This document shows, piece after piece, positions 7,998 through 30,360 of a stretch of DNA of 64,000 bases; position 1 is the first letter of the stretch, and every line of letters begins with the position of its first letter. A model generated the notes under the pieces. The model was not told the origin of the DNA and searched no databases. It worked only from the letters and a program-made list of their open reading frames with translations. The DNA is from an uncultured Chloroflexia bacterium (GTDB lineage Bacteria; Chloroflexota; Limnocylindria; Limnocylindrales; CSP1-4), in the NCBI GenBank assembly GCA_963819655.1, contig CAWFXA010000003.1, positions 64,001-128,000 on the forward strand. Direction: 5' to 3'. The translations under genes and the position numbers were made by a program.

Positions 7998-8074
7998 GCC
8001 GCATTCGTCTAGAGGCCCAGGACACCGCCCTCTCAAGGCGGAGATCACCGGTTCGAATCCGGTATGCGGTACCA
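7998..8074 (+). tRNA. tRNA-Glu (CTC)
   Basis: Acceptor gccgcat/atgcggt; anticodon arm ccgcc-ctCTCaa-ggcgg; T arm accgg-ttcgaat-ccggt; encoded CCA; upstream TATCCT -10-like hexamer. Confidence 0.97.
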
Positions 8075-8197
8075 AAATCGCCAGTTTCGGCCCGATCCAC
8101 GCTCGGATCGGGCTCGATTGCGATCGGCCTGCGGAAGGTCATCGCCTGGACGGACATCACCCGCGACCCGACTCGCTTCCGCTTCGACGGCCGATGA

Positions 8198-8623
8198 TCA
8201 GAGGGCAGTGACCTCGTCGCCGACGGAGATCACCCCATCGGTCAGGATGTCGGCGTTGATGCCGCCGCGGTGCACGAGGTCCCGGATGATCCCCGGGCGG
8301 GTCCGCTGCTCGAGTGATAGACAGGGCTCGCAGATCTCGACCCCGTAGCACTCGACCTCGCCGACCCGGAAGCGCCGGCCGATCAGCTCGTTGAGCCGCA
8401 CCCCGCGCACGGTCACCTGCCGGCGGGTGGCCCCCGGCGGCAGGCCGACCTCGTCGACGACCTCCTCCTCGACCAGCGTGAGGGCCTCGCCAGGATCGGC
8501 GCCGCCCTGGGCGTGGAAGTGGCGGTCGCCCTCGAGGCCCATGCCCGCCCGTGCCCGGACCGACGGCACCGGCGCGACCGGGCCGCCGTGGTCAGCGCCG
8601 AGGTGGATCGCGACGACCTGCAC
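8198..8623 (-). CDS. MOSC domain protein
   Basis: GLEGDRH, TRRQVTVRG, CEPC and RGGINA motifs; GGAGGT RBS. Confidence 0.88.
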   Translation of the reverse strand: MQVVAIHLGADHGGPVAPVPSVRARAGMGLEGDRHFHAQGGADPGEALTLVEEEVVDEVGLPPGATRRQVTVRGVRLNELIGRRFRVGEVECYGVEICEPCLSLEQRTRPGIIRDLVHRGGINADILTDGVISVGDEVTAL

Positions 8624-8705
8624 TCTGGGACCTCCTGCTGAGCCCGCGACCGCCCTTGGCGGGCATTCGTCAGGTCAAGGCTAACGCTGCGGCCCATCTT
8701 CCGTT

Positions 8706-8753
8706 AGTACCGTCAGCCGCTGGGAAATCAACGAGTACCTGACGCTGTTCTGA
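8706..8753 (+). pseudogene. C-terminal remnant resembling glutamine synthetase (STVSRWEINEYLTLF*)
   Basis: Manual translation matches the VSxWExxxYL C-terminus of GlnA/GlnT-type enzymes; no upstream gene body. Confidence 0.5.
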
Positions 8754-9045
8754 GCGATCACAAGGATGGGTGACCACCCAACACGCGGCCGGCTCGGTCA
8801 GCGCCAAGCCGGATACCTTCCCCTTGTTGGGCTACGTGTCACGGTCGGTCGGGACTCGTAGCCGCTCGAATCCGGCGGAGCGCCTAGGTTACTGGTCAGG
8901 CGAATTGCGTGGCGCTTCGGGTTTGTCGCGCAAGCACCCCTGTCCGGACAGGTCGCACGTCCGACTAGTGATTCGAGCGCGCCCGACAGGAACCCCGACG
9001 GCACCGGCGCCCCGGACTCGTCCGGGCCATCTCTCGGCGCCGGAC

Positions 9046-9204
9046 CTGAACCCCTATCTGAACCCTTATGGATCCTGTGTCTTGTGTCTCATGTGTCTCT
9101 TGGATGTACTCGTTGAACGCGGCTGAGACACATGAGACGGTTCACTAGGCATCCGGTATGCGGTACCACTACACCACGACATGTAGTGGTTTGTTGCGGT
9201 TTGA
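9046..9204 (+). repeat. attP-like junction module 1 (tandem CTGAACCC(C/T)TAT, hairpin, tRNA-Glu core, NrdR-like box)
   Basis: 12-bp tandem at 9046-9069; perfect 14-bp inverted repeat 9086-9099/9125-9138; core atccggtatgcggtacca at 9151-9168. Confidence 0.85.
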
Positions 9205-9248
9205 TGGTCGCGCCAACCTGTCCTCTCCGACCCCGAGGGCGCGGTCAG

Positions 9249-9490
9249 CTACAGGTCGACCTGGACCTCGCCGTTGGCGACGTGGAGGGGGTAGCTGCGC
9301 ACGGGGTCCTCAGCCGGACCGCGCACGACCGCACCGCTCGTGACGTCGAAGCGGCTTCCGTGGCAGGCACACTGCACCGTGGACCCGTCGAGCTTCCCAT
9401 CACCCAGAGAGCAACCCCTGTGGGTGCACGTGTCGTCGATGGCAAAGAGCGTCCCGGCCACGTTCGCGAGGGTGATCCGCGTTCCCTTGG
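9249..9490 (-). pseudogene. Rieske-type ferredoxin, N-terminally truncated
   Basis: CTHRGC and CACHGSRFD [2Fe-2S] motifs; sequence upstream of GTRITLANV does not look ferredoxin-like. Confidence 0.75.
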
Positions 9491-9684
9491 AGCGACCGGC
9501 CCCGATCGTCCTTAGGAGCGGGATCCGGCTCCGACCGACCGCTTCGGCGCCGTGCTCAACGGACCTCGAACGCCCGCACATGCCCCGGCTCGACGTCGGT
9601 CGTGCGCGCAATGGTTCTCAGCATCTCTGAACCTCCTCGAAGGACCACTTTGATCTCTCGTCAGGTGTCGTGTCCGCATGGGCC

Positions 9685-10092
9685 TCAGTTCCCGACAAGG
9701 CCCGCGCGAGCGGATGGCGTCGAGTCCTGCGCAGTACTGTCGGGGCCCGCGAAGACGTAGACGATCATCGCGACCCAGCCAAGGCTGACGAGCCCCAGGA
9801 CGAGCAGCACGACGAACCAGGTCTTGTCATCGAGTCGGGACGTGTTGAGCAGCGCACCGACCCACGAGGCGATCGCGGCCAGCGTGCCCGCCGCCAGGAC
9901 GAGCGAGGCGACGATGAGAGCGGCGATGGCCCAGGCGAACGGTCCGCCGCTCAGGGTCACGACCTCGGAGCCACGGATGACGACCGCGCCATTTGCGAGC
10001 GCCGCCACGACGCCAGCGATCCCGATGGTCAACCCCACGACGACCGTGGCGATGGCACCGGCGAACAGCCGGGTAATGGTTGACTTCGACAT
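9685..10092 (-). CDS. Hypothetical membrane protein
   Basis: 135-aa ORF, about three TM helices, GAGGT RBS. Confidence 0.8.
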   Translation of the reverse strand: MSKSTITRLFAGAIATVVVGLTIGIAGVVAALANGAVVIRGSEVVTLSGGPFAWAIAALIVASLVLAAGTLAAIASWVGALLNTSRLDDKTWFVVLLVLGLVSLGWVAMIVYVFAGPDSTAQDSTPSARAGLVGN

Positions 10093-10125
10093 TTCGACTA
10101 CCTCGCTGTTGGAGTCCGATGACCC

Positions 10126-10521
10126 TTACTCCCCGATGACCTCGATCACCATGCCGGGATGCCATGTGCAGACGAACTGCGTAGTTCCCTTTGGCACCGT
10201 GGCGGTCACCGTCACAATGCCCCCGGACTCCATCGGGCCGGTGCTGACATTCAGGTCAGTACTGGTGAAGTTGTGGTTCGACTGCCCCGCGTTGCGCAGC
10301 TCGAACGTTGCCGGGACTCCCGCGTCAACCTGCACGCTCGCGGGCTGGAACGTGTCGTCCTGCATGACGATCTGCGTGGCGTCCTGTCCGCCCGGGCCCG
10401 GCCGAACATCACCGGCCGCGTTCTCGCCCAGCGCATTTCCATAGATGGCCGCGGCACCTGCACCGATCACGACGACCAGCAGCAGCGCCGCGACCCCGGC
10501 GACAATCATCCATCGACGCAT
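10126..10521 (-). CDS. Cupredoxin-domain exported protein
   Basis: Signal/TM anchor, HNF and FVCTWHPGM copper-ligand pattern; GGAGGA RBS. Confidence 0.85.
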   Translation of the reverse strand: MRRWMIVAGVAALLLVVVIGAGAAAIYGNALGENAAGDVRPGPGGQDATQIVMQDDTFQPASVQVDAGVPATFELRNAGQSNHNFTSTDLNVSTGPMESGGIVTVTATVPKGTTQFVCTWHPGMVIEVIGE

Positions 10522-10716
10522 CTCGAATCCTCCTAGCCCGATAGGGCACTTATGGATCCGGCCGTTGGCGACGCCAGCGCAGTCCGGACCCGTAGTCCGG
10601 CCACGACCGTATGTCTCAGAGAGTCGCGAGTCGTCACTCGGAAGTGCAGTAGCGGGGTGGAATTCCGACGAGGAACGAGCACCGTCCCGAGGTTGGCAAG
10701 CCCTGGTCGGCGGGCC

Positions 10717-11841
10717 CTACGAGCGGAGCCGCAGCCCGAGTACTCGTATCGTTCGAAGGAGCGCATCCACCACTGGACCCGGGGCACGGTCACCGATGTT
10801 GATCATGACGCCCAGCTGTCGACGGCCATCCGGCGTGCTGAGGATCATGGTCAGGAAGCCGGGGATCCCACCGGCGGCGCCGACCAGTGGCCCGCCGGGT
10901 GTGTCGGTCTCGATGATCCCCAAGCCGTTTCGGTCAAACAGGGGCAACGGGAGGGAGGCCCGTGGGACTGCGACGCTGGTGAGCATCTCTGATAACAGCT
11001 GGGACGGCAGTAGCTCGCCACCGAGTAGGGCCCGAAAGAAGAGCTGGAGATCCTGGAGATTCGAGATGAGCGCGCCCGCTGCCCAGGCATATGAGGGGTT
11101 CTGGGCAGTGAAATCGATCAGCGGGCCGTCCACCACGTCCAGCTGCGGAGTCAGTGGCAGGCTGTATCCGCGCGACATCGGGCTCGGGATGCCAGTGCCT
11201 GCGACAGGGAAGGACGTGTCGCGGAGTCCGAGCGGCCTGAGGATCCGCCGTGACAGCTGCGTGCCGAGCCTCGTGCCAGTCGCCGCCTCGATGATGAGCC
11301 CGAGCAGGGTGTACCCGACGTTGGTATAGGCCCACGCGGTGCCCGCCGGAAAGAGCTGCGGGCGATCGGCAACGAGTGCGACCTGCGCTCGCGGGGTCCA
11401 GGTGCGAAATCGTCCGTCTGGGGACCCATACAGCGAGCGCCAGAGCATTGGCGCGTTGTGGGGCACGCCACTCGTGTGGTTGAGGAGCTGCCTGATGTTG
11501 ATCTGGTCGCCATAGGACAGGACGCCCGGCAACCACCGCTCCACCGAGTCCGAGAGCGACAGCATGCCGTCCGCGACCAGCTGGAGCACGACCGCTGCGA
11601 CGAACGGCTTCGTCACGCTGCCCGCCCGAAAGTGCAGGTGAGGCTGCATGGCACGGCCGGTTCGAAGGTCGGCGACGCCGCTCGCGACCTGTGCGACGAC
11701 GCGCTCATCCACGATCCGCGCCGCGGCCCCGGGCGCACCGGCCGCCACTAGCTTCCTGACCAGCTGCAGCAGCTCACCGGGATCATCAACGATCCGATCG
11801 ACAACGGTGGTGGCCGAAGGGGCACGCGACATCTCGCTCAC
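10717..11841 (-). CDS. Serine hydrolase (beta-lactamase class C / D-Ala-D-Ala peptidase family)
   Basis: FRAGSVTK (SxxK), LLNHTSG and YTN motifs. Confidence 0.9.
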   Translation of the reverse strand: MSEMSRAPSATTVVDRIVDDPGELLQLVRKLVAAGAPGAAARIVDERVVAQVASGVADLRTGRAMQPHLHFRAGSVTKPFVAAVVLQLVADGMLSLSDSVERWLPGVLSYGDQINIRQLLNHTSGVPHNAPMLWRSLYGSPDGRFRTWTPRAQVALVADRPQLFPAGTAWAYTNVGYTLLGLIIEAATGTRLGTQLSRRILRPLGLRDTSFPVAGTGIPSPMSRGYSLPLTPQLDVVDGPLIDFTAQNPSYAWAAGALISNLQDLQLFFRALLGGELLPSQLLSEMLTSVAVPRASLPLPLFDRNGLGIIETDTPGGPLVGAAGGIPGFLTMILSTPDGRRQLGVMINIGDRAPGPVVDALLRTIRVLGLRLRS

Positions 11842-12275
11842 CGTCCGCCCCCCTCGAGGAGTCCCTTGAGAACGCCCAAGTTCTCGGCCACAGACGAGCG
11901 GATACGGCCGCCAACGAGGTCGGTGAGGGGTCCAAGCGGCACCTGCGGATCAAGCTCAACGAGGTTCTTGAGCCGCGTTCCCTGGGCGGTCGGTTCGAGC
12001 TCGTATCTCACCCGGGCTCTGAATGCCCCGATCGATCCTTCGACCTCGACCGTTCGATCGGGGACGAGGCGGGTGAGCTCGAGGAGCTCGACGGCAGGCC
12101 GCGGTACCTCTCGAGTCTGTCGGTAGCGAGTCCCCACGCCGACCGGGCCCGGAGTCACCTTGCGGGTGCTCGTGATCGCCCAGTTCCATTCCGGGGTGTG
12201 CTCGAGGTCAGCGAGGTAGGTGTAGACGACTCGTGGATCCCGCGCGATCTCGAGGGTGTTCTCGAAGTGCATCAT
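11838..12275 (-). CDS. SRPBCC (polyketide cyclase-like) protein
   Basis: 'VYTYLADLEHTPEW' and 'GPVGVGTRY' motifs. Confidence 0.85.
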   Translation of the reverse strand: MMHFENTLEIARDPRVVYTYLADLEHTPEWNWAITSTRKVTPGPVGVGTRYRQTREVPRPAVELLELTRLVPDRTVEVEGSIGAFRARVRYELEPTAQGTRLKNLVELDPQVPLGPLTDLVGGRIRSSVAENLGVLKGLLEGGGR

Positions 12276-12317
12276 GATCTCCGTCCTCCGATCGATACGT
12301 AGGCCGCCGGCGCGTGA

Positions 12318-12893
12318 TCACGGGTCCCGCTCGTCTACCGGTGGCCGCGTCCGCAGATCGATCAGCTCGGCGACCCAGGCTCGGAGTCGACCGAGGTGCT
12401 CGCCGTAATGCTCCGCGCCGGCCTTGCGAACCCAGCGGTCGGCCGCGTCGTCTGGCTCGCGAAGTGCGAACCACGCCTGGAGCATCCAGATCCGGGCGCC
12501 GTTGGCCTGCGTCCACACGACGTCCCAGGGCTCGTCCTTGAGGGCCGCCAGCGTCGCGGTGCTCCGGCGGTCGGCATCGAACTCGTGCGGCTCGTACGAG
12601 TTGGCCGCGATGTTGATCAACTGCGTTTCCGCTTCAGTGAGCCACATCCCAAGGTGAGCGATGAGGTCCTTCGCACTCCAGTCGGGATCCACGAAGTAAC
12701 CGGGGGCGAGTCGCTCGCCGGGTGTCAACAGATTGGTGAGTGCCGTGATCTCCGCCCAGCGAGCACGCTCGATCTCGATCTCGGCGATCAGCGACTGGTC
12801 GAATGCCGGCCACGCCGGAGGGCCGGTGACCGGTAGGCGTAGACGACCGTTGAGCGCATCGGGGCTGCGACCGTCCTGCAATTCGTGCGCCAT
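12318..12893 (-). CDS. DinB/ClbS-DfsB-like four-helix protein
   Basis: WSAKDLIAHL and C-terminal EHYGEH motifs. Confidence 0.75.
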   Translation of the reverse strand: MAHELQDGRSPDALNGRLRLPVTGPPAWPAFDQSLIAEIEIERARWAEITALTNLLTPGERLAPGYFVDPDWSAKDLIAHLGMWLTEAETQLINIAANSYEPHEFDADRRSTATLAALKDEPWDVVWTQANGARIWMLQAWFALREPDDAADRWVRKAGAEHYGEHLGRLRAWVAELIDLRTRPPVDERDP

Positions 12894-12910
12894 GGCAAGC
12901 GCCTCCTTCG

Positions 12911-13345
12911 TTACTGTGGGGTTTGGCTACGGCTTGTGGTGCGGCCCGTCGCGGTCGACCGCTTCGATGCGTTTGTGCGCACGCCCTCCCAATACCAGCG
13001 AGCGCCTTCCCACGCGGGCTGCCCTTCGGGCGGCCGAGCCACGTAGGTCCAAGTCGGGTTGGGATGAGCGCGGTGGACGGGTCGAGCCATCGGGGCGGAG
13101 GCGGCGGGCCGGTGGCGAACGAGCGGCGTCGCCGACGGAACTCGATTGAGAAGAGCCTCATAGGCCGCCTGGATGGACAGAAACGTGGCCAGGCCTTCGC
13201 CACCCGCGCGGTCGGGATGGAATCGCTTCGCGAGCCGTCGGTAGGCGACCTTGATCTCCGCGGGCGAAGCGCCCGGCCGCAGGCCGAGCCGTGCATATGC
13301 ACCCGATCGGAGGCCGGATCGGTGTGTTCGATTGATCGTGGTCAT
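12911..13345 (-). CDS. Small J-domain protein
   Basis: 'EIKVAYRRLAKRFHPD' J-domain signature. Confidence 0.85.
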   Translation of the reverse strand: MTTINRTHRSGLRSGAYARLGLRPGASPAEIKVAYRRLAKRFHPDRAGGEGLATFLSIQAAYEALLNRVPSATPLVRHRPAASAPMARPVHRAHPNPTWTYVARPPEGQPAWEGARWYWEGVRTNASKRSTATGRTTSRSQTPQ

Positions 13346-13364
13346 CGTCTCGTCCGATCTGCCG

Positions 13365-13742
13365 CTACCCGACGGTCAGGCTGCCGCTCATGTCCGGATG
13401 GACGTCGCAGCGGAAGAAGTAGGTGCCCGATCCCAAGGCCGGCACGTCATAGACGACGACAGCGGGGCCGCTGAACGGCTCCTCGACGAGGACCTTCTCG
13501 GCCGCCGACGCGTCCCGGTAGATCGCGACGTTGTGGAGGGCGGCTTCCTGGTTGTCGAAGACGATCTGGAAGGGCTTGTCGGCCGGGGCAGTCAACGAGG
13601 TCGTCGAGAATGCGAGGCCATTGGCCTCGATCGACAGGGCGTCCGGACCGACCGACGGCTGAGTGGTCGGGTTGGCCGAGCCTCCTGCACAGGCGGTCAG
13701 CGCAGCAATCGGGATGAGTAGGGAGGCGAGCAGCCTCATCAT
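13365..13742 (-). CDS. Cupredoxin-domain lipoprotein
   Basis: Lipobox LTAC, HNV and FRCDVHPDM motifs. Confidence 0.87.
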   Translation of the reverse strand: MMRLLASLLIPIAALTACAGGSANPTTQPSVGPDALSIEANGLAFSTTSLTAPADKPFQIVFDNQEAALHNVAIYRDASAAEKVLVEEPFSGPAVVVYDVPALGSGTYFFRCDVHPDMSGSLTVG

Positions 13743-13781
13743 CGGAAGGCTCCTATCGGGGTGATCTGAACTTGCTTCCTG

Positions 13782-13824
13782 AGGCTAGGAGCCGGCCCCG
13801 CGGCGGTCGTCACCCGAAGGTGGA
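13782..13824 (-). promoter_or_regulatory. Operator plus -10 promoter module of putative MalT-like regulon
   Basis: Minus strand TCCACCTTCGGGTGACGAC-N18-TAGCCT; near-identical module at 16040-16083. Confidence 0.65.
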
Positions 13825-13980
13825 TAGGGCAGGTGGAATCCTGCATAGGCGAACTCGGGGGATCGAGTGGCGTCGCGCCACCGGGTGGCGGCGGGGCTCG
13901 GGTCAAGGCCGTCTTGCTGGCGCGACGGCCGGGACGCGGGCGGGTGCCGCTCGACGCTCAGGGCCCGGCGGGCTCCGACC

Positions 13981-14199
13981 TCACGAAGCTCGGGCGCGGT
14001 CGTCCTCGATTCGGCGTACCGAGATCAGCACCAGGCCGAGGTCATTTACTCTCGACAGCAGTCCGTGCAGCGCAGCCTGGTCCGCGACCTGACCCACGAT
14101 GAGCGTCTCGTTCTCGCCAATGGTCCGGACTTCGAGCCCGTCGAACCAGGATGACCAGCGCTCGTCGAGGAGTCCCTCGACCCGGATCTCGTAGCCCAT
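13981..14199 (-). CDS. Small uncharacterised protein (YEIRVxG...DQAALHG family)
   Basis: 72-aa ORF from ATG 14199; homologous to 28855..29067. Confidence 0.82.
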   Translation of the reverse strand: MGYEIRVEGLLDERWSSWFDGLEVRTIGENETLIVGQVADQAALHGLLSRVNDLGLVLISVRRIEDDRARAS

Positions 14200-14242
14200 C
14201 AGACGCGGATGCCCATGTCGAGCCCAACCACATCGTCCCGCC

Positions 14243-15994
14243 TCATTTGGTCGATGACGCCGCGGAGCGGTATCGCTGAACCTGCTGGCTCGCCGCGGCA
14301 CCCTCGCCCACGGCAGCGGCAACACGTTTCATCGAGTCATGGCGGACGTCGCCCGCCGCGAAGACGCCGGGCATCGTCGTTTCGAAAGGCAGCCGGGTGT
14401 GCCCGTCAGCTGACGGCACGTCGTCGCCCGTCAGGACGAAGCCTCGCTCGTCGCGGGCAATCGCTGACGGCAGCCATGCTGTTTGTGGCTCGGCGCCGAT
14501 CAGCAGGAATAGGCCCGTCGCGTCGCGTTCATCGATCGTCCCAGCGGCGTTGTCGCGGATCACGAGCGAGCGCAATCGCCGGTGGTCCCTCGCCTCGGCG
14601 ATCTCGCTGCTGAGACGCACCTCGACGTTGGGCAGGTCGTTCAGCTGCTCGAGCAGGTACTCCGACACGGTCCCGGCAAGCGAGTGGCCACGCACGATGA
14701 CGGTGACCGTTCGGGCGTAGCGGGCGAGGTGGATGGCCGATTGGGCGGCCGAATTTCCGCCGCCCACGACCGCGACTGGCTCACCGGCCATCGCGCGGGC
14801 CTCCGTCGCCCCCGAGCCGTAGAACACGCCACGGCCGACGAGGCCTTCGACGCTCGGGATCCCGATCCGCCGATACGACGCGCCCATCGCCAGTACGATC
14901 GCCCGCGCCCGCGCCTCGGAGCCGTCATCGAGCAGGACGATGCGCTCATCACCGTCAGCCCGAATCCCGTTCGCACCTCGGCCTATTCGCGCCTGGACGC
15001 CGAACATCCACGCCTGCTGCCAGGCTCGCCGCAGGAGCTCCGCGCCGCTCAGGCCGCTGGGGAATCCGAGGAAGTTTCGGATCATTGGACTCGAGCCCGC
15101 CTGACCGATGCTCGGCTCGACCAGCAACACGCGCAAGCCTTCTGAACCGAGATTCACCGCGGCCGACAGGCCCGCAGGCCCCGATCCGAGGATGGCCACG
15201 TCGAACGGTGTCGAAAGGGGCTCGGCGTTCGCGCCGAACGCTTCGGCAACCTCGGATAGCGACGGACGCGCCAGGATCCGGCCGTCGGGCAAGACGGCAA
15301 CCGGCATCCGATCGCCCGGATCGAGCCCGGCGACAAGGCGGAGGCCTTCGGCCGTTTCGGCAACGACGAACCCCACGCGGGCTCCCCCCCAGCGTTCGAG
15401 GACATCGGCGAGAGCCTGCCCCTGGACATCGGACCGCTCGCTGACGATCGTGATTCCAGAGGTGAAGCGGCCGTGCTCACGTGCCCAGTCGGCCAGGATG
15501 TCGCCGACCAGCGCCAGGAACTGCTCGTCGGTCTCGTTCCAGGGCAGGCTCGCTTGATGGTCGATCTCGCCGAGCGTCGCTGCGCGGGCGATCGTCGGCA
15601 GTGCCGACAGGTCGGACCATCGCGTCACGACGAGTCGTCGTGCGGTCGGAAAGGCGTCCCGGGTGCGGGCCAGGAAGGCGGTTCCGGTCTCTGGTTTCAT
15701 CCATTGACCTGCGACGATGAGGGCGACATCGGCCGCCTTGTCCCGAAGACGCAACAGCTCATTGAACGCGGCGACGGGTCCCGGCAAGGACATGACGTCG
15801 TAGTCGGTCCCGTACCGCCTGTTGAGGCATTCCTCCAGGACGTCACGGGCGCTCCGATCGTCCTCGACGACGAGGATCGTGGGCCGGTTCTGCGTCGGGT
15901 TCGCTGCAAATGTGCTGGTTGGGACGTCCGGCGGCAATCGCCAGCCGGCTGCCCAGCGACTCCGTCCATCGTTCCCGAGGGTGCTCTCGCTCAC
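14243..15994 (-). CDS. Receiver-fused thioredoxin-reductase-like FAD oxidoreductase
   Basis: N-terminal ILVVEDD receiver; GSGPAG, GGGNSA and GVFAAGDVR motifs. Confidence 0.88.
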   Translation of the reverse strand: MSESTLGNDGRSRWAAGWRLPPDVPTSTFAANPTQNRPTILVVEDDRSARDVLEECLNRRYGTDYDVMSLPGPVAAFNELLRLRDKAADVALIVAGQWMKPETGTAFLARTRDAFPTARRLVVTRWSDLSALPTIARAATLGEIDHQASLPWNETDEQFLALVGDILADWAREHGRFTSGITIVSERSDVQGQALADVLERWGGARVGFVVAETAEGLRLVAGLDPGDRMPVAVLPDGRILARPSLSEVAEAFGANAEPLSTPFDVAILGSGPAGLSAAVNLGSEGLRVLLVEPSIGQAGSSPMIRNFLGFPSGLSGAELLRRAWQQAWMFGVQARIGRGANGIRADGDERIVLLDDGSEARARAIVLAMGASYRRIGIPSVEGLVGRGVFYGSGATEARAMAGEPVAVVGGGNSAAQSAIHLARYARTVTVIVRGHSLAGTVSEYLLEQLNDLPNVEVRLSSEIAEARDHRRLRSLVIRDNAAGTIDERDATGLFLLIGAEPQTAWLPSAIARDERGFVLTGDDVPSADGHTRLPFETTMPGVFAAGDVRHDSMKRVAAAVGEGAAASQQVQRYRSAASSTK

Positions 15995-16039
15995 GTGGTC
16001 TCCTCGATCAAGGCGGCGGCTGCCGCGCGGTTCTCGAAG

Positions 16040-16083
16040 ACGCTACGAGCCGGAGCTGATCGCGGTCATCACCCGAAGGTGGA
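16040..16083 (-). promoter_or_regulatory. Operator plus -10 promoter module of putative MalT-like regulon
   Basis: Minus strand TCCACCTTCGGGTGATGAC-N19-TAGCGT upstream of the gene starting at 15994. Confidence 0.65.
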
Positions 16084-19700: not shown

Positions 19701-19701
19701 A

Positions 19702-22507: not shown

Positions 22508-22560
22508 TGAGCATCCAAGGGCAGCGATCGATTGGTGGCGGGCCTCATGGCTCTCGCGTA

Positions 22561-23679
22561 ATGCCGGACGCAGCACCGGATGGGACGGTCGCGGGCGCTC
22601 CGGTCGGGACGCCGGCGCAGCCGACGCCGAGCCGTCGGGCGATCGCGGGGCGCGCGGTCGTGCTCGTCGGGATCTTTCTGTTCGTGTTCGGGGTCGTGTT
22701 GCCGCGCCTGATCGACTACGACGCGGTTCGCGCCGCGCTCGCAGCGCTGACCCCCGGTCAGCTCGGGCTGCTCGGTGCCGCCAGCGTGGTCGCCTACGTC
22801 GCCAACGCCGGTCCGACCCGGGTCCTCGTGCCCGGGCTCTCATGGCCGCACGCAGTCGGGTCGGACCTGGCCGCGCGGGCGGTCGTCAGCACCGTGCCCG
22901 GGCCGACTGACGTTGCCACGCGGCTCGTCCTGTACCGCCAGTGGGCGATCCCCACCGCCATCGCGAGCGCCGGGATCGTCCTCGCGGCCCTGTTCGAGAC
23001 GTTCTCCTTGTTTGCCCTGCCGCTGACCGCCACCGCAGGTCTGCTCGTCACCGGTCACCCGGCCGAGTCGCGTGCGCTCCAGCTCGCGCTGATCGGCCTC
23101 ATCGTGCTGGTCGCCGGCGCGGTCCTGATGGTTACCATCGTGCGCTCGGAGGACCTAGCCCGGAGGCTGGGCGGCTGGCTCGACCGGATGGCCCAGCGCA
23201 TCTGGAAGTTCTTCCGGAAGACGCCGCCGACGGGCATCGTCGAGGGCATCCTGGACCTTCGAGAGCGCTCGAAGGCCATCCTCACGCAGCACGGCCTGCG
23301 CGGGTTCGTCGCAGCCGTGGTCGCCAAGCTCGCCTGGTTCGTCGTTCTCGAGATCGCCCTCTGGTGCGTCGGGGTCGGCCCAGATGTGCTCCCGCCGTCG
23401 GCCGTGCTGGCGGCGATGGCGGTCGTCGGGATGGTGTCGCTCATTCCCATCACGCCGGGCGGCGTGGGCGTCACCGAGGTCGCCTACATCGGCATCCTGT
23501 CGAGCGTGGCCGGCTCGGGGCTGACCGAGCAGCTCACGGCCGCCGTGATGCTGTTCCGGATCGCCCAATGGTTCGTCCCGATCCCGGTCGGCTGGGTGCT
23601 TCTGCTCGTGATGCGCCGGGGCCACTTGGGCGAGCTGCTCGGGGGTCCCGACAAGGTTCCGACGCCGTCTTCGAGCTGA
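22561..23679 (+). CDS. Lysylphosphatidylglycerol synthase TM / YbhN flippase-like protein
   Basis: Multi-TM; PITPGGVGVTE and AVMLFR motifs. Confidence 0.85.
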   Translation: MPDAAPDGTVAGAPVGTPAQPTPSRRAIAGRAVVLVGIFLFVFGVVLPRLIDYDAVRAALAALTPGQLGLLGAASVVAYVANAGPTRVLVPGLSWPHAVGSDLAARAVVSTVPGPTDVATRLVLYRQWAIPTAIASAGIVLAALFETFSLFALPLTATAGLLVTGHPAESRALQLALIGLIVLVAGAVLMVTIVRSEDLARRLGGWLDRMAQRIWKFFRKTPPTGIVEGILDLRERSKAILTQHGLRGFVAAVVAKLAWFVVLEIALWCVGVGPDVLPPSAVLAAMAVVGMVSLIPITPGGVGVTEVAYIGILSSVAGSGLTEQLTAAVMLFRIAQWFVPIPVGWVLLLVMRRGHLGELLGGPDKVPTPSSS

Positions 23680-24019
23680 TGGGAGCGCGCGTCGGCCGCG
23701 GTCGGCGACGCCGTCCTGGCCGCTCGGTGAGAGCGAGCTCCGAGTGCCAACGAAGTCCGTCGCTCGACACGCTGAGGTCACGACGCGAGCCGCGATGTCG
23801 CGGGGCTCCAGGATGCGCGCGGGCCGTAAAGCAGTCGCTCGAGGCCACGCGCGAGGCGCTCGTGTCCTGACGGGGCGAGCGATGCGGAGCACCGAGCGCG
23901 TGAGGCGCGGTGGCCCAGCCAATGGCCGAATTGGCCGAATCGTGGGACGACCGCTCATCCTCGCGGATCGGACGCTTCGTCCCTATTCCACAGAGTTCAA
24001 TCGAAAGGAGAAGGTTCCA

Positions 24020-24588
24020 ATGCTTGGTTTGGTGGCGCGCGACTGGTGGGTGTTCGCGATCCGTGGCATCGCTGCGATCGTGCTCGGCATCCTCGCATTC
24101 ATCTGGCCTGAGAGGACGCTCACGGTGCTCGTCTTCCTGTTCGGCGCCTACTTCACTCGTCGACGGCGTCGCGCTGCTCGATCGCGCTCGCTCGCGGCGA
24201 CGCAGAGGCGCGGCGGGACGCCTGGGCCGTGGGGATCATGGGCGTCCTCGGCATCGTCGTCGGCGTCGCCACCTTCGTGTCGCCAGGCCTGACGGCTCTA
24301 ACGCTGCTGTACCTCGTGGCCTTCTGGGCGATAGCGACGGGCGCCTTCCAGGTTATCGCGGCCATCGCCCTCCGGCGCGAGCTCGAAGGCGAGTTCTGGA
24401 TGGCACTCGGCGGCGTGGCCTCGATCGTATTCGGCGCACTGCTCGTCGCCTCCCCCGGAGACGGGCTGATCACGCTCGTGTGGCTCGTCGGGATCTGGTC
24501 GGTCGTGTTCGGGGTCTCGAACCTCGGCCTCGCGAATCGGCTCCGTAAGGTCGACGCGGCCATGCCCGCGCCCGCCGCGCAGCACTGA
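24020..24588 (+). pseudogene. HdeD family acid-resistance membrane protein, frameshifted near 24155-24190
   Basis: N-terminus WWVFAIRGIAAIVLG; continuation LVDGV in a second frame; C-terminal half in ORF 24229..24588. Confidence 0.8.
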
Positions 24589-24652
24589 CCCGCTCGGGTC
24601 GCGATCGTCCACGAGGGCTGCATGCGACAGACGACTGTGTGGACAAACAAGA

Positions 24653-24692
24653 GCAGCGGTGGGAGCGGCGGCAACGCCGCTCCCACCGCTGC
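24653..24692. terminator. Perfect 18-bp stem with GCAA tetraloop
   Basis: gcagcggtgggagcggcg-gcaa-cgccgctcccaccgctgc downstream of the hdeD-like gene; no U-tract. Confidence 0.55.
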
Positions 24693-24754
24693 GTGAGTTC
24701 GGCTGAGCCGACCAACATCAGGGAGGGCCAGGATGCCCGGGAGCGACGTAGAAC

Positions 24755-25873
24755 GTGCGGGCGGCGGTGTCGTTGGGGATCGCCCGCGACGATGAGTCGC
24801 GCGCGGACGGGCTGATGCTGTCCGCCGGCCCGCTCACGGCCATCGGCGGGCTCGTGCTCGTCCTCGTCGCGGTGCTCGCCCTACGCGAGGTGGCGTCGCT
24901 CGTCGTCCCGGTGGTGTTCGGTCTCTTCATCGCCCTCACCGCCTGGCCGATGGTCGGGGCGCTCGAGCGGCGTGGCGTCCGGCACGCGTTCGCGCTTGGC
25001 GGGAACGATGGCGGTCGTCCTTGCCATCGGTCTCGTTGCGGCCTGCGTAGCCGCGCTCTCGGTGGGCGAGCTGGCGGTCAAGATTCCCACGTACGAGAGC
25101 CGCCTGAGCGCTGCCCTCGCGGCCCTGCGCGATCTCCTTGGGCAGCTCGGGATCAGCGTCGATCTCGGCGCCATCACTGCGATCATCTCGCCGGAGAGGA
25201 TCTTCGGACTCGTCAAGCCCGTGGCGTCGGCCGTCTCCGAGGCCGGTGGCGCAATGTTCGTCCTCGCCTTCACCATGATCTATGCGCTCGCAGGCGGGAC
25301 GTCGCTCCGGGCGCGGGCGGTTGCGGCGTTCGGTGAGCAGCACGCGCTCCTGCTCGGCATGGAGCGGTTCGGTACCGACCTGCGACGCTACCTCGTCGTG
25401 CGAGCCAAGCTCGGGCTATTCGCCGCCGTGCTCTCGTTCGTGCTTCTAGCTCGTGCTCGGCGTGCCGTTTCGCCGTCCTGTGGGCGATCCTCGTATTCGC
25501 CGCTAGCTTCGTCCCGAACATCGGCGTCCGTGATCGCCGTCGTACCGCCGACGATCCTCGCATATCTCGACAGCGGGCTTGGCGACGGCGGCGATTGGTG
25601 GTCATCGGATATGCCGTCATCAACTTCGCCCAGGACCAGTTCCTCCAGCCGGTGGTCATGGGGAGCGAGCTCAACCTGAGCCCGCTGGTTGTCTTCATCG
25701 CGGTCGTCGTGTGGGTGTGGATCCTCGGCCCGGCTGGCGCGCTTCTCGCGGTCCCGCTAACGGTCGGGCTGGTCATGCTCCTCGAGGTGTTCCCCTCCTC
25801 GCGGGGCGTTGCCGCCGTGCTCCGCAACAACGTCGAGGCGCAGCCCGGGATGCGCGAGACGCTCGTGCCCTGA
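24755..25873 (+). pseudogene. AI-2E family transporter, multiply frameshifted
   Basis: Segments in ORFs 24755, 24972 and 25595: 'RRYLVVRAKLGL', 'FVPNIG', 'LNLSPLVVFI..W.WILGP.GALLAVPLT'. Confidence 0.82.
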
Positions 25874-25994
25874 CCGGCCGGCGGTCAGTTCGCCGGCTGC
25901 CCTGACCCGACGTACGCGAGGCGACGGCGAAAATGACGCCCTCGAAGGCCGGGAATGCACGTGACGGGATGACGCCGTCGGCCGACGGCCGCGC

Positions 25995-28661
25995 CTATCC
26001 GCGCCTCCGCGTCGCCGCGGCGAGCAGCCCGAGATCGCGAGCGCGTTCGACCGCCTCGGTGCGTCGATGGACGCCGAGCTTCTCGTAGACGTGGCGCATG
26101 TGGGTCTTGACCGTGCTCGTGGAGACGAACAGCTCGCCGGCGATGTCCGGTGCCGACAGGTTGCTCGGCAGGTAGCGAAGGACGCGAAGTTCGCTCTCGC
26201 TGAGCGGCTCGGCCAGGGTCGCCAGCTCTCCCACGCCGGCTGGCGGCAAGCCGGCATAGCATGCCGCGGATGTCGGTCAGCAGGGTGGCGTGAGCCGTTC
26301 GGTGGCGAGGGTGGCGATCGAGGAGATCCGTCCACGGGCGTGATGAGGAACGGGAAGACGACGGCGTCGGCCTCGGTCAACGTCGAGCGCACGCTCGACG
26401 TCCGCTTCCGCGGCGTCCCCCTGGCCGAGCCGCTCCCGGGCGAGCGCATCGATGAAGCAGCGCCTGGACCAGCGTGAACACGCGGATCACGGACGCCTCG
26501 CCGTTGAGGACCGGGGCGAGGACCTCGATGGCCGACGACGCGTCCTCGTCGGCGAGGTGGATCGCAGCCGCCGCGCACCGGGTCTCGCCCCAGTCGCGCT
26601 GTTCCTGACCGACTCGAGCGAGCGTGGCGCGCGCGGCCTCGCGCTGGCCCATCCGCAGACTGCGGTCTGGACGAGGAAGTTCCGCACGAGGGCGGTGTTG
26701 ACATGCATCGTGACGAGGGACGCCTGCGTTCGCTCGGCGGCCGCGAATACGCCGGCCGCCTCGTCGAGTTGACCCTCACCGAAGCGCTGGATGCCGCGCA
26801 CCAGGAACAGGAACAGCGCAGTGGCGGGCTCCACTTCCGTGCGCAGCGCGCGCTCTGCTCGATCGAGCCACTCGCCACCTTCGGCTATCCGACCCTGGGC
26901 GACGTCGACCGCCGCCATGGTCGCCAGCGCCATGCACGCGATCGGTTCGGTCTCCCAGCCGTGGCGCTCGGCGATCGCGACCGCCTCGGCCGTGACCGGC
27001 CGCTGCCGGGTCAGCGGCCGAGTCGGCAGGAGTGCCATGTGAGAGAGGCAGCCGATCTCGAGGTACGGCCGTCCGGCTCGACGCGCGAGCCCAAGGGCGT
27101 GCTCGAGGTCGCGTTCGGCATCGTCCGGGCGACGCGCCCACAGCTCGAGGATGCCGAGGTTCATCAAGGCCTTAGCGCGCGCGTCGTCTCCGAGGAGCAC
27201 CCCGTCGAAGGCGTTGGCTGCCGGCTCGAGGAGCGTGCGGACCTCGGCGAGCACGGACGCGTCGTCGCCGCGACGGCGCGCAAGGGCGAGCCGGGCGATG
27301 GCGAGGTTGAGCCCGAAACGTGCCCGCCGGTCGGGCGGAACGTCCTCGTGATGCTGCTCGGCCAGCGCGATGTACGACGCTGCGGTCCCGAGCGAATGGG
27401 CCGAGAGCTCCTGGTAGGCCATGAACGCCGCGAGCTCGGGCTCGCGTCGAACTTCCGCCGGTAGGGCCGCGAGGAGGCCGTCGACCGCCGCTCCCTGCCC
27501 GTCGAGCGAGAGCGTGAGGCCGTGCTCCGCGAGGAGGCGGCCCGCGTAGTCCCACGCCTCGGCTCGCTCGGCGTGGCGGACCGCCTCGAGCACGTTGCCA
27601 TGGGCGACGTACCAATCGGCGGCGGCGAGGTGAAGCTGGGGCACGTCCTCGGGGCTCGTGCGGCGGAGCTCCAGCCGCAGGAGATCTGCCAGCAAATGGT
27701 GGTAGCGGAACGTCGTCCTCGCCGCATCGACCGCCACGACGAAGGCGTTCTCGTCCTCGAGCCAGAGGAGGATTCGTTCGGACCCCATGGACCTGAGGAG
27801 GTGGTCTGCCAGCGGCCCGGTGACGTTGTCGAGGATCGAGGTTCGAAGGAGCAGGCGACGGACGTCCGCGGGCAGGCGGGCGAGCACCTCGGCGAGCAGG
27901 TAGTCGGCCACGGTCCGCTCATTGCCCGAGAACTCGGCGACGAAGCGGCGCGGATCCGGATGACCAGCGAGCGAGAGCGCGGCCAGGCGGAGCCCGGCTG
28001 CCCAGCCCTCGGTCCTGCCATGGAGCTGCGACAGGCTGTCGTCGTCGAGCCGGACGTGCGCCGCCTCCAGAAGTCTGTGCGTCTCGGCGAGGTTGAACCG
28101 CAGATCGGCCTCGCGAATCTCCGTGAGCTGGCCGGCCAGGCGCAGTCGATGGAGCCCGAGCTGCGGGTCGTGGCGCGTCGCCAGCACGATGCAGAGATGT
28201 TCGGGACGGCCCGCGATGAGTTCGGCGAGGTCGTCGCGCGCCAAAGCGGCGCGGAGTTCATGGAGGTCGTCGATCACCAGCAGGATCGGCCGATCGAGCC
28301 CGGCGAGCTGGGCGATCAGCCTCTGTACCAGGGCAGCACCGTCGAATTGCGGTGATGGAGCGAGCGGCGCAAGGACGGCGTCCGATCCGACGGCCGCGCG
28401 GAGCTGTTCGAGCACTGAGAGCCAGAAGCGCTGGGGGTCCTGCTCGTCCCGCCGGACCGAGACCCAGGCGGCGCGGTCGGCGAGGTTCGCTTCGTTGATC
28501 CACGACCGCAGCAGCACGGTCTTCCCGCTGCCAGGCGGCGCCGAGACGAGCGTGACGCCGCCTGCCAACCCGGCGGACAGGCGCTCGAAGAGGTCCGGCC
28601 GCGCGACAACGGACGGAGGGTGCGCACCCGAGGTGATCGAGGATGTCCTCACCTTGCGCAT
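25995..28661 (-). pseudogene. Second MalT-like STAND/LuxR regulator, several frameshifts in C-terminal part
   Basis: APPGSGKT, LVIDDLH, TEGWAAGL, FRYHHLLAD; LuxR HTH 'LSESELRVLRYL..STVKTH' in ORF 25995..26249. Confidence 0.87.
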
Positions 28662-28802
28662 CGTCCCACGCCGGAACTCACCGAGGAAGGCAGGCGCGTG
28701 ATGGCCAGGACCAGGGCGACGGGCATTGCGATGCGACCCTGCTCAGTCTAACCCTTCGAGATTACCGACCTGGCCGGTCGGCCGGTCTTCGGCGGACCTC
28801 GA

Positions 28803-28848
28803 TCGTCCTATCGGGATGATGCGGACTCATCCGCTCGAACACGACGCT
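28803..28848 (+). promoter_or_regulatory. Palindromic operator TCGTCC-N5-GGATGA plus -10 GACGCT, leaderless start
   Basis: Same spacing as the other island modules; ATG lies 6 nt after the -10. Confidence 0.55.
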
Positions 28849-28854
28849 CACGGC

Positions 28855-29067
28855 ATGCGCGATCTTCGGAATGGTGCCCGGTACGAGATCCGCATCCGTG
28901 GAATCCTGAGTGGAACGGTCGCCGGTGCCTTCTCGGGCCTCCTAGCCCGGGAGGATCGCGGCGAGACGGTGCTCACCGGCCGGCTCCCGGACCAAGCCGC
29001 ACTCCACGGAGTCCTTGCCCAGATAGAAGCGCTCGGACTCGAGCTCATTGAAGTCCGGCGTCGGTAG
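28855..29067 (+). CDS. Small uncharacterised protein (YEIRIxG...DQAALHG family)
   Basis: 70-aa homolog of 13981..14199, divergent from the MalT-like gene. Confidence 0.82.
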   Translation: MRDLRNGARYEIRIRGILSGTVAGAFSGLLAREDRGETVLTGRLPDQAALHGVLAQIEALGLELIEVRRR

Positions 29068-29259
29068 AGGGAAACGCTCCTGGCGGACGCGCCTAGGGAC
29101 ATCTCAGGCCTCCAGCCATGACCCTGAGGCACGCCGATCGCTGCACACGTCGTCAGGGGGCCTGCGGACCGCGAGCAAGGAGGGTTGGCTCGCGTGTCGA
29201 CTCGCGGACCGGGCAAACTTGTGCGGGCGCAAGTCGAGGATGCCGCGTCTCGCGTAATT

Positions 29260-29367
29260 AGAACATCTGTTCTGTCGCGCCCGACAGGAGTTGAGCGCGC
29301 GGATGCCATAAATATCCGAATCCCGACTGAGGGAGTCAACATTGGCATAATGGCCGAAGGCGCCTGA
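29260..29367 (+). repeat. att scar / recombinase tail copy B, preceded by AGAACATCTGTTCT palindrome
   Basis: 35-bp identity with 20444-20478; reads SRPTGVERADAINIRIPTEG. Confidence 0.7.
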
Positions 29368-29488
29368 TCGCTGACAGCTCCGGGAGTGGTCGGGCAGATG
29401 CCAGAGCGCAGGCTCACCAGTTGAGGCCTCTGACCCCTCGACCGGCGGCGTGGCCGTCGGCCGCCGTGAGTAAACGAGAGGAGTCCCG

Positions 29489-29950
29489 ATGAGCGCGAGA
29501 TCGATCGACGAGCTGGGTCCCGTCGACTACCTGGTGGTCGAGTTTCCGGCGGGGCAGCAGAACTTCACCGGCGAGGCAGTCGACCAGCTCCTGCGGTTGC
29601 ATGACTCGGGGATCATCCGGGTCATGGACCTTGTCATCATCGGCAAGGGCGACGACGGGACGGTCATGGCCCAGGAGCTCGCCGACCTCGACGACATGGG
29701 CGAGTTCGCCCGGCTCGAGACCGAGCTGGCCGAGACCCTCGCCGAAGAGGACGTCCTGAAGGTTGGGGCGACGATGGAGCCCGGTAGCCTGGGCGCCGTG
29801 CTCGTCTACGAGAACCTGTGGGCCGCAGGGTTCGCCTCGGCCGTCCGCCATGCCGGCGGCCAGCTGGTTACCCAGGGCCGGATCCCGATCCAGGCCATCA
29901 TCGCCGCCGTCGAGGCGGACGAAGCGGCGCTTGTCGCCGAAGGAGTCTGA
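29489..29950 (+). CDS. DUF6325-like protein
   Basis: GPVDYLVVEFP and LVYENLWA..GRIP motifs; GAGGAG RBS. Confidence 0.85.
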   Translation: MSARSIDELGPVDYLVVEFPAGQQNFTGEAVDQLLRLHDSGIIRVMDLVIIGKGDDGTVMAQELADLDDMGEFARLETELAETLAEEDVLKVGATMEPGSLGAVLVYENLWAAGFASAVRHAGGQLVTQGRIPIQAIIAAVEADEAALVAEGV

Positions 29951-29951
29951 G

Positions 29952-30134
29952 ATGCCGCTCCGATCATCGCGTCTGGGCAGGGCAGCGGTCGTAACGGCCG
30001 CCGTCACGCCGGGACCGTCGCCCATCGCCAAGGCCGCCGTCGTTGGTGCCGCCGTTTCGAAGCCCGGGCCCGCCCCGATCGCCAAGACCGCTGTCGTCGC
30101 GGCGGCCATCACCCCGGGGCGCCGCCGCTTCTAG
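29952..30134 (+). CDS. 60-aa peptide with three internal Ala/Val/Pro repeats
   Basis: AAGGAG RBS, ATG immediately after the upstream stop; repeats of AVVxAA(V/I)x(K)PG. Confidence 0.7.
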   Translation: MPLRSSRLGRAAVVTAAVTPGPSPIAKAAVVGAAVSKPGPAPIAKTAVVAAAITPGRRRF

Positions 30135-30199
30135 TCGACGATCATGCCGTCCGCGGGCGTGGGACCCTCCTCGACGCGCCGGATCGCGCCGCGCGGGGA

Positions 30200-30345
30200 T
30201 GCTGCTGGCCGAGCCTCGCGCAAAGGTGACCCATCGAGGTCTCGATGGTCTGCGGGGTGCGGGCTGCCGGTCGGTCGCGGTGGCAAGTAGTTTGGGGCGC
30301 ACAGGTGCGAGCCGCCCTTCACGACCATCCGCGGGAACCGCTCGT
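30200..30345 (-). pseudogene. Formylglycine-generating enzyme (FGE/SUMF1) C-terminal fragment
   Basis: RMVVKGGSHLCAPNY, then frameshifted ..RPAAR.PQTIETSMGHL; begins at the att core. Confidence 0.8.
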
Positions 30346-30360
30346 CGGTATGCGGTACCA
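30346..30360 (+). repeat. tRNA-Glu 3'-end copy (15 bp; attR-like)
   Basis: cggtatgcggtacca followed by atcgcc; compare tRNA ...cca-aaatcgcc. Confidence 0.75.

Follow-up and report, generated by a model that had tools for sequence, protein, structure and literature searches.

How a run of direct repeats of a tRNA 3' end came to divide a block of cargo genes in which no integrase is recognisable is the question raised by a 64,000-nucleotide stretch of an uncultured Chloroflexia bacterium (GenBank assembly GCA_963819655.1, contig CAWFXA010000003.1, positions 64,001 to 128,000; hereafter the window, in whose coordinates positions are given unless another locus is named). Here, a tRNA-Glu(CUC) gene is followed by a tandem array of segments parted by attachment (att) modules, for which the initial annotation had left two explanations side by side, namely eroded islands, or non-autonomous cargo cassettes mobilised in trans on an integron-like platform. 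The evidence leans towards eroded islands, and the second explanation fails as far as it invokes an integron. We consider it probable that tyrosine-integrase elements accreted in tandem at the tRNA-Glu gene and that their integrases were then lost, leaving decayed islands that resemble cis-mobilizable elements (CIMEs).

The tRNA-Glu gene (anticodon ctc) lies at 7998..8074 on the plus strand and is recognised by ARAGORN and by the Rfam tRNA model (61.6 bits); ARAGORN finds a second tRNA gene, tRNA-Arg(tct), at 39455-39530. The last 18 nt of the tRNA-Glu gene, ATCCGGTATGCGGTACCA, which we refer to as the core, occur exactly in the gene itself (8057-8074, copy 1), at 9151..9168 (copy 2) and at 20202..20219 (copy 3), and with 15 of 18 positions matching at 30343..30360 (copy 4), all on the plus strand and thus direct throughout. 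A pattern search for the 18-mer gives these four matches at up to three mismatches, compared with a mean of 0.01 in shuffled sequences, and none of 100 shuffles reached four. Furthermore, CTGAACCCTTAT is found exactly at 9058 and 20110, the first copy 93 nt upstream of the core at 9151 and the second 92 nt upstream of that at 20202, and with one mismatch at 9046 and 20304 (four matches at up to two mismatches, against a shuffle mean of 0.67), and CACTnCACCAC...ATGTAGTG follows both internal cores. The core repeats at 8057, 9151, 20202 and near 30346, as well as the repeat 93/92 bp before the internal cores, had been described in the initial annotation and are confirmed here.

With respect to relatives, a contig scan with the 18-mer and 10-kb flanks returned at least 125 stretches, and 122 loci were listed (given below as L numbers; counts are among these), nearly all of them metagenome-assembled genomes (MAGs) labelled Chloroflexota, Chloroflexia or Candidatus Limnocylindria. 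An actinobacterial host, which the G+C content of the window had at first suggested, was rejected on the strength of these labels. The closest relatives among the loci listed are L054 (~81% DNA identity) and L055 (77-80%). We observe that L054 is collinear with window positions 1-8075 and 32411-38398, the two stretches enclosing just 2 kb there, and that L055 is an empty site, in which the window sequence from 32412 onward starts 16 bp after the tRNA. By synteny with these two loci, which set the right border, the insertion runs from 8075 to ~32406 (24.3 kb), and not to 30360 as had been proposed, so that a fourth segment of 2 kb (30361 to ~32370) is added to the three recognised before. At this right border, an alignment tentatively places a weak, much-decayed copy of the tRNA 3' end at 32370..32406 (+), after which comes the native downstream sequence of the tRNA (B', 32407..32445, +) with its G+C hairpin at 32415-32440; in L055, B' stands immediately behind the tRNA, and in L001 behind the attR core. 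From 32466 onward lies the conserved neighbour gene, DUF1611 by Pfam, and an intact tRNA-Glu gene is retained at the left edge of the insert. We read the stretch from 8075 to ~32406 as a composite genomic island, whose host is a Limnocylindria-like member of the Chloroflexota.

The order DUF1015, alpha/beta-hydrolase, tRNA-Glu, DUF1611 and MR/MLE enolase is conserved across loci, while the content of the site is not, since the three closest genomes hold 24.3 kb (the window), 2 kb of unrelated genes (L054) and nothing (L055); identical content in all relatives, which would have spoken against the proposal of the initial annotation, is thus not what is found. Among the 95 listed loci that bear the tRNA-Glu gene, the site is empty in 34 (DUF1611 within 300 bp), 17 have 0.4-9.1 kb before DUF1611, in 10 DUF1611 is missing from a flank of 3 kb or more, so that these carry at least 3 kb or differ in synteny, and 34 are too short to judge. 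The tRNA-Glu site is a hotspot of insertion: at least 27 of the 61 genomes that can be assessed have it occupied. In addition, in 13 of the 95 loci the sequence stops right at the tRNA or no more than 153 bp past it (L021, L029, L042, L048, L061, L016, L084, L086, L091, L108, L110, L120 and L122), which suggests that assemblies break after tRNA-Glu owing to strain-level variation or to the repeated att modules. One locus of a different kind is L054 10019-10260, where the tRNA and a complete class II P' arm (described below) are followed after ~220 bp by a partial core, ATGCGGTACCA, joined to B'-like sequence, which looks like an element reduced to its ends.

The modules at the internal cores recur in these relatives and have the anatomy of an attP: arm repeats, inverted repeat, core, hairpin(s) and again arm repeats. 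This agrees with their earlier description as homologous att sites of a tyrosine integrase. The 105-bp P arm together with its core (9040-9168) is found in 28 of the 122 listed loci, as 23 distinct instances with 71-93% identity, and arrays of modules in the same orientation are seen in L077/L068, L031, L026, L035, L001, L063, L073 and L074. From its outer end, the P arm comprises two arm-type direct repeats (CTGRACCCTTAT or GGAGCCCTTAT), a tandem TCTCATGCG repeat, a spacer of ~28 nt, the inverted partner GAGACGCATGAGAC and ~15 nt resembling a tRNA T-arm, after which the core begins. In the window, the P arm of subfamily 1 at 9046..9150 (+; 22 further instances in other genomes) has its arm-type repeats at 9046-9057 and 9058-9069; it also contains a tandem repeat similar to TCTCATGyG and an inverted repeat, one arm of which lies at 9086-9099 and the other at 9125-9138. 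The P arm of subfamily 2, assigned by alignment to 20095..20201 (+), has an arm-type site at 20110-20121 and an inverted repeat that is altered on both arms relative to subfamily 1, and is 75-81% identical to L031 6054-6370 and L092. No P arm is recognisable upstream of core copy 4 at 30343.

On the other side of the core, two classes of P' arm are distinguished. Class I consists of a hairpin (GGCCCGAT...ATCGGGCC) followed by two arm-type repeats, and class II of short palindromes (CCACnACATnTAGTGG, then CACAG..CTGTGG) followed by two arm-type repeats. The sequence after 131 exact cores (L068, a duplicate of L077, being left out) is class I in 26 cases, class II in 17, native B'-like in 32, other in 49 and too short in 7. 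The class I P' arm of the tRNA-proximal element lies at 8075..8172 (+, by similarity to other loci and class assignment); it keeps its hairpin (~8089-8114) while its arm-type repeats (~8144-8172) are degenerate, and positions 8060-8114 are 83-93% identical to the post-core sequence in L017, L048, L042, L083, L046, L020, L088 and L071. By alignment and class assignment, core copy 2 is followed at 9169..9204 (+) by the start of a class II P' arm (CTACACCACGACATGTAGTGG...), truncated and without arm-type repeats, with the stop of a Rieske gene at 9249 downstream of it. A complete class II P' arm is present after core copy 3, at 20220..20315 (+), with two short palindromes and then two arm-type repeats (20292-20315), homologous to L077 13478-13171. 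Arm-type repeats thus stand on both sides of the core at 20202, as they do in L017, L071 and L112, an arrangement that has the appearance of a lambda-type attP; L001 has the P' arm after the tRNA and the P arm at its attR, and the core at 9151 has arm-type repeats on the P side only. In summary of the two junctions, 20202 is a complete attP-like site and 9151 a full P arm with core.

Side by side with the window array, L077 (CAVRFC010000006.1, 1011-21028) and L031, which belong to the same MAG, carry four and three att modules, respectively, in arrays with a spacing of 0.7-5 kb, and ARAGORN finds no tRNA within the 20-kb stretch. The more decayed cores in L077 are the two nearer the presumed tRNA side, which would be the reverse of the gradient in the window if a tRNA were there.

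The P-arm inverted repeat remains symmetric where both of its arms have changed (CG/UA at one pair of columns, UA/GC at another; double changes in 6 of 15 predicted pairs), which would fit either a hairpin or a two-fold protein site. A hairpin with some covariation, and a core-proximal P arm that resembles the T-arm and acceptor strand of a tRNA, might lead one to read the repeats as tRNA-derived copies, be it of a gene for a small non-coding RNA or of a repeat dispersed by other means, rather than as scars of recombination. We hold this to be very improbable, as the exact copies are all direct and bound insertions at a single tRNA site that is empty in relatives, these very arms have a physical link to an integrase gene, and no Rfam family matches them. 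A tRNA-like stretch within attP is, moreover, the rule for integrases that target tRNA genes.

Despite these sites, we find no recombinase in the window, in line with the initial annotation, which had seen neither a tyrosine nor a serine recombinase. Pfam recognises none in the 42 + 26 = 68 predicted genes of the whole window, nor in 150 six-frame stop-to-stop pieces from 7.9-30.9 kb, out of 252 that reach a length of 60 aa (the other 102 being mostly frames that overlap large genes already scanned with Pfam, plus pieces beyond 30.9 kb). A hidden Markov model (HMM) of the cognate integrase family introduced below, built from the 360-480-aa members among the best 120 of 7028 proteins and run with --max, has no match at E≤10 among all six-frame pieces of at least 25 aa in the whole window. 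When the 120 integrase proteins were compared with the window, they matched solely in att DNA (7.9-8.2, 9.0-9.2 and 20.1-20.2 kb). No integrase remnant was therefore seen within the segments, and Pfam, with the family HMM for the integrase, found no recombinase, relaxase, coupling-protein or replication domain in any of the four segments (A to D). A stretch at 20316-20412 (minus strand) was considered as a decayed integrase C-terminus and rejected, because the family HMM gives it no support. Likewise, tblastx of the gene-poor stretches (8620-9050, 19100-20100, 20220-21250, 28650-30345 and 30361-32410) against the 122 listed loci returned only att-adjacent non-coding similarity and a few cargo homologues, the module 20080-20330 has no BLASTN match (distant mode) in phage or plasmid collections, Rfam at E≤1 recognises nothing in 7000-40500 beyond the two tRNAs and two sub-threshold chance matches, and a promoter and terminator scan of 7900-9400 found nothing.

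Outside the window, sequence comparison points to a tyrosine integrase cognate to this att family. Pfam was applied in two rounds, to 69 of 116 called genes and to 135 of 157; the resulting 204 proteins, which belong to 36 loci that have an insert or an internal core, show very varied cargo (cyclases, STAND ATPases, transporters, two-component systems, oxidoreductases) and no transfer genes. At L017 1498-2328(-), an open reading frame (ORF) matches PF00589 (E=1.2e-20); it adjoins a class I P' arm and is oriented towards the core, so that module and tyrosine integrase do occur together, as the initial annotation had suggested looking for. The L017 gene is 5'-truncated, starting at a TGMRQGE motif right behind a TPR gene, and has no stop codon before the P arm. 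Homologous pieces stand in the same place and orientation beside the tRNA or a core in L065 (cut by the contig end, 1422-2951), L007 (5'-truncated, with stop codons upstream), L035 and L011 (internal fragments) and L071 (an internal deletion), and L056 has a PF00589 match 3.4 kb from the core that is differently arranged. In these relatives, the integrase gene starts directly after the class I P' arm; at the corresponding point of the window, 8172, the gene is gone.

Residues 1-175 of the L017 ORF match 7028 proteins of a protein collection at E≤1e-10. The best 120 of these include full-length forms of 398-473 aa with PF14659+PF00589, 76-85% identical and mostly on 2-3-kb contigs, as well as many forms of 180-300 aa, some on long contigs. 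An integrase for this site is therefore found as truncated remnants in relatives and at full length among database proteins. In 24 of the 120 listed integrases, the last 60 residues contain an antisense translation of the tRNA-Glu core, and their genes therefore abut this tRNA. Such tails, which align to 8126-7989 of the window, are seen in ORFs that have no stop before the core; they read as antisense P' arm plus tRNA-Glu and end in ...GTAYRIRTGDLRLERAVS (L017 1498-2328, L065 1422-2951, and database proteins such as P0008, P0010, P0015, P0018, P0036, P0069, P0071 and P0089), and the C-terminal tail sequence changes on integration. ORFs that cross the core, as in L017 and L065, could in principle indicate an integrase split by integration, as in the SSV type; this was rejected, since family HMM homology ends at position 373 of 375, ~190 nt before the core. 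We prefer to attribute the read-through to G+C-rich DNA in which no stop codon happens to occur, and the antisense tails are probably an annotation artefact of such DNA.

With a cognate integrase at hand, the likeness to an integron can be weighed. A repeated site of ~130 bp that parts blocks of cargo, together with an absent integrase, would suit a strict integron with promoterless cassettes and folded single-strand sites that was left as a CALIN-type cluster (a cluster of attC sites lacking an integrase) once its integrase was lost, and the inverted repeat that stays symmetric despite changes on both arms would suit a folded site. The repeat is, however, a tRNA 3' end with lambda-type arm repeats, direct in orientation and not an attC palindrome, and the inverted repeat lies beside the core, not across the crossover. 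The segments measure 1-11 kb (1.1, 11.0, 10.1 and 2.0 kb) and hold one to about ten genes on both strands with their own LuxR/GerE regulators, and the cognate integrase is of the phage type (PF14659+PF00589) and adjoins the P' arm of an element rather than the attI of a platform. Site type, cassette architecture and integrase type exclude this reading, to which we give hardly any credence, and the integron-like platform of the initial annotation fails on the same anatomy, with no attC-type site and with multi-gene, two-strand segments.

Accretion followed by integrase loss, which we favour, would proceed in three steps. An incoming element would recombine with the tRNA-proximal core, restore the tRNA and push older elements outward, leaving junctions of the form P(new)-core-P'(old); the integrase, usually with the adjoining P' arm, would afterwards be deleted from each element; and the residue would be cargo with partial cis sites whose decay rises with distance from the tRNA. 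We observe that the cores decay outward from the tRNA, from 18/18 at 9151 and 20202 to 15/18 and then to the weak copy, that the P' arms of segments A and B lack good arm-type repeats, and that segment C contains two broken genes. No window segment keeps two well-preserved arms, and A, B and C have one each: segment A has a decayed P' arm on the left and an intact P arm on the right, segment B a truncated P' arm and an intact P arm, segment C an intact P' arm and, on the right, the 15/18 core without a P arm, while segment D shows nothing recognisable on the left and a weak core on the right. Other genomes show integrase remnants at all stages of truncation beside the same att arms (L017, L007, L035, L011 and L071). 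Because the integrase is lost and the cis sites are partial and decaying, we regard the segments as decayed CIME-like elements and not as an organised cassette platform.

Several observations weigh against this. No complete integrase-bearing element with both arms was seen, the best example, L065, being cut by the contig end, and PF00589 is found in just 2 of the 204 cassette-region proteins. Among 23 P'-bearing junctions with at least 1.5 kb of flank, integrase remnants are present at 3 and whole genes at none, which is a low rate if each cassette brought its own integrase; the class II P' junctions among them are without any integrase trace (0/11). L001 holds a 3.4-kb element without integrase in which both arms are intact and carry matching arm-repeat variants, which is what a trans-mobilised element would look like. 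In addition, the core copy at ~32370, the fifth, is weak, and decay is the sole guide to the order of arrival, the gradient in L077 being impossible to orient with no tRNA in its 20 kb.

The same observations favour the possibility that many of the segments, notably those with class II P' arms, never had an integrase and are cargo with matched arms that would be excised, circularised and put back at tRNA-Glu by an integrase acting in trans, provided by a transient element or encoded elsewhere in the genome. Integrase-less units with conserved arms occur in many genomes, the L001 element has full P' and P arms, both with the GGAGCCCTTAT repeat variant, and the window itself has the complete attP-like site at 20202. 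P arms are 80-93% identical between genomes, compared with 67-81% DNA identity for the conserved flanking genes; LPG_synthase_TM/DUF1003 cargo is found in different genomes at 86% and 71-81% DNA identity and receiver-oxidoreductase cargo at 66%, and the 13 contigs that end shortly past the tRNA would fit variation between strains. On the other hand, the graded remnants show that loss in situ does happen, the difference between class I (3/12) and class II (0/11) in integrase traces is not significant, and two good arms are found in no window segment. The decaying outer cores imply that the cis sites are not under lasting constraint, the same cassette is never seen in two genomes, and the shared LPG_synthase_TM/DUF1003 block is rearranged relative to the att sites. 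We therefore judge cargo without an integrase of its own to be an unlikely origin of these segments. A broader version, to which we give a similarly small chance, makes the tRNA-Glu(CUC)-DUF1611 gap across Limnocylindria a shared accretion platform of mostly non-autonomous units, with the integrase supplied in trans by rare transient elements; such a platform may be a tyrosine-integrase, tRNA-anchored functional analogue of the integron, with the class II P' arms, L001 and the junction at 20202 as examples. Under accretion and integrase loss as well, the junction at 20202 is complete and that at 9151 retains P arm and core, so that a cognate integrase arriving from outside could still recombine these sites, with blocks being added, inverted or deleted; mobilisation in trans of the window segments at present would thus be possible, although each keeps just one good arm.

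With respect to cargo, the four segments differ in size and content. Segment A (8075..9150, 1.1 kb; Pfam and six-frame Pfam) holds a MOSC-domain gene at 8198-8623 (-), then ~400 bp without a recognisable gene and the P arm; 8620-9050 has no match in any of the 122 listed loci by tblastx. Segment B (9169..20201, 11.0 kb; Pfam and gene calls based on third-position G+C content, GC3) encodes on the minus strand a Rieske protein (9249-9611), a product of unknown function (9685-10092, by gene call), two cupredoxins (10126-10521 and 13365-13742), a PF00144 beta-lactamase-family protein (10717-11841), an SRPBCC protein (11838-12275), a DnaJ-domain protein (12911-13345), a receiver plus pyridine-nucleotide-disulphide oxidoreductase (14243-15994) and a MalT-like LuxR regulator (16116-19292), followed on the plus strand by two ORFs of unknown function called within 19200-19941. 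Segment C (20220..30342, 10.1 kb; Pfam) encodes DUF1269 (21209-21715, -), DUF1003 (22064-22507, +) and LPG_synthase_TM (22507-23679, +), then the two broken genes, namely a frameshifted DUF308 gene (23612-24585), whose repeat protein is split across two frames, and an AI-2E transporter gene (24752-25870), in which Pfam matches just the N- and C-terminal pieces in different frames, and further a GerE regulator (25995-26249, -), an AAA_16/STAND ATPase (26487-28661, -) and DUF6325 (29489-29950, +). Positions 22534-23690 are 86% identical to L031 6549-7704, which in L031 is sited between two cores. Segment D (30361..32369, 2.0 kb; Pfam and synteny) has a META-domain protein (30380-31852, -) and small ORFs and is missing from the empty-site relatives. 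GC3 of the island genes is 0.72-0.91, mostly ~0.80, and lower than that of most flanking genes (0.84-0.93).

Two families of non-coding sequence were noticed within the segments. The first, with a 45-nt heart GCGCGCCCGACAGGAGTTGAGCGCGCGGATGCCA, is present at 20424-20492 and 29256-29324 (88% identical), one copy ~110 bp past the class II P' arm and the other 165 nt upstream of the DUF6325 gene, with a partial copy at 8979-8993 and further copies in L077 (~13022-13086), L031 (~8315-8351), L111 (~489-538) and L028 (~598-644). It has a GCGCGC/GCGCGC palindrome enclosing an AGGAG loop and no Rfam match, and its window copies are preceded by GAACAyCTGTwC, which we take to resemble a Gram-positive SOS box. 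The second is a 34-37-nt motif, GTCGTCACyCGrAAGTGsA...GGTGGAAT, at 10630-10663, 13806-13842 and 16062-16097 (+) and 19075-19111 (-), with relatives at 21774-21807 and 23929-23962. It stands 64-110 nt upstream of four units of segment B (the two cupredoxins, the receiver-oxidoreductase and an ORF of unknown function) in constant orientation relative to the gene, and is probably a shared operator or promoter of the redox and copper genes of the island.

Beyond the island, the conserved flank contains a 630-aa protein with an N6_N4 DNA-methylase domain (35290-37182), whose gene is also present in relatives (75-79% DNA identity to L034, L004, L002 and L011). Another small tRNA-side indel lies just upstream of tRNA-Arg(TCT), where 37503-39452 takes up ~1.9 kb in the window against ~42 bp in L055 and includes a 449-aa ORF (37536-38885, minus) without a Pfam match.

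This single tRNA-Glu hotspot shows how the flexible genome is built in a widespread, uncultured class of soil and freshwater Chloroflexota, and its readable att grammar (P arm, core and two P' classes) can serve to set island boundaries where MAGs are fragmented. Two artefacts are accounted for as well, namely contigs that break at tRNA-Glu and database integrase ORFs with an antisense tRNA tail. Should integrase-less units indeed move in trans, the site would offer a natural system in which to study non-autonomous cassettes that depend on an integrase; on the present evidence we see in it an ordinary array of decayed islands, though in a new lineage.

Among known systems, integrons and CALINs share with the window a cargo array parted by a repeated recombination site with no integrase nearby, and differ in site type, cassette size, gene orientation and integrase type. 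In staphylococci, composite staphylococcal cassette chromosome (SCC) and pseudo-SCC arrays at rlmH (orfX) include tandem blocks without a recombinase that are thought to be excisable through the recombinases of a neighbour. These arrays are, like ours, tandem blocks bounded by direct repeats of the 3' end of the target, but their recombinases are of the serine type (Ccr), their target is a protein-coding gene, and their att repeats are short and have no arm-type sites. Xer-dependent elements (IMEX, pdif modules) are bounded by dif-like XerC/XerD sites; the segments here are bounded by a tRNA 3' end with arm repeats, to which a dedicated integrase is linked in relatives.

The nearest parallel to the decay described here is offered by CIMEs. 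In a review of integrative and mobilizable elements (PMC5704250), CIMEs and tandem accretion at att sites are described for the ICESt1/ICESt3-related islands of Streptococcus thermophilus, where integration and decay are followed by the integration of another element into the remaining att site. As in the window, integration genes have been lost, att sites are kept and elements stand in tandem at the 3' end of a target gene, and the composite could be moved by the integrase of an incoming element. Unlike that account, no conjugation or mobilisation genes are seen in any member here that would show descent from integrative and conjugative or integrative and mobilizable elements; the target, moreover, is a tRNA gene in Chloroflexota. 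Where a CIME retains attL and attR, the window goes halfway, with one good arm to a segment.

A second parallel is found in the tycheposon islands of Prochlorococcus, in which, according to a preprint (bioRxiv 10.1101/2020.12.28.424599), tyrosine integrases target tRNA genes. Like in the window, repeated integration at one site pushes older elements deeper into the island and leaves partial tRNA copies between elements, and the fragmented integrases, further partial tRNAs and a majority of material no longer recognisable as an element that are described there have their similar counterparts here. Set against that account, our array belongs to a different phylum, its integrase lineage may differ, neither the recombinase (tyrosine or serine) nor the replication module that a tycheposon carries with its cargo was found in the window, and a complete element was not recovered, while the att arms (a 105-bp P arm and two P' classes) can be read across genomes and the cargo comprises several genes together with regulators. 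One full-text search, on Limnocylindria and integrases, returned a single unrelated paper and no printed description of this att and integrase family. For the locus as a whole, a decayed island array is the best explanation; arrays of this kind are known, and what is new is the element family and the host lineage.

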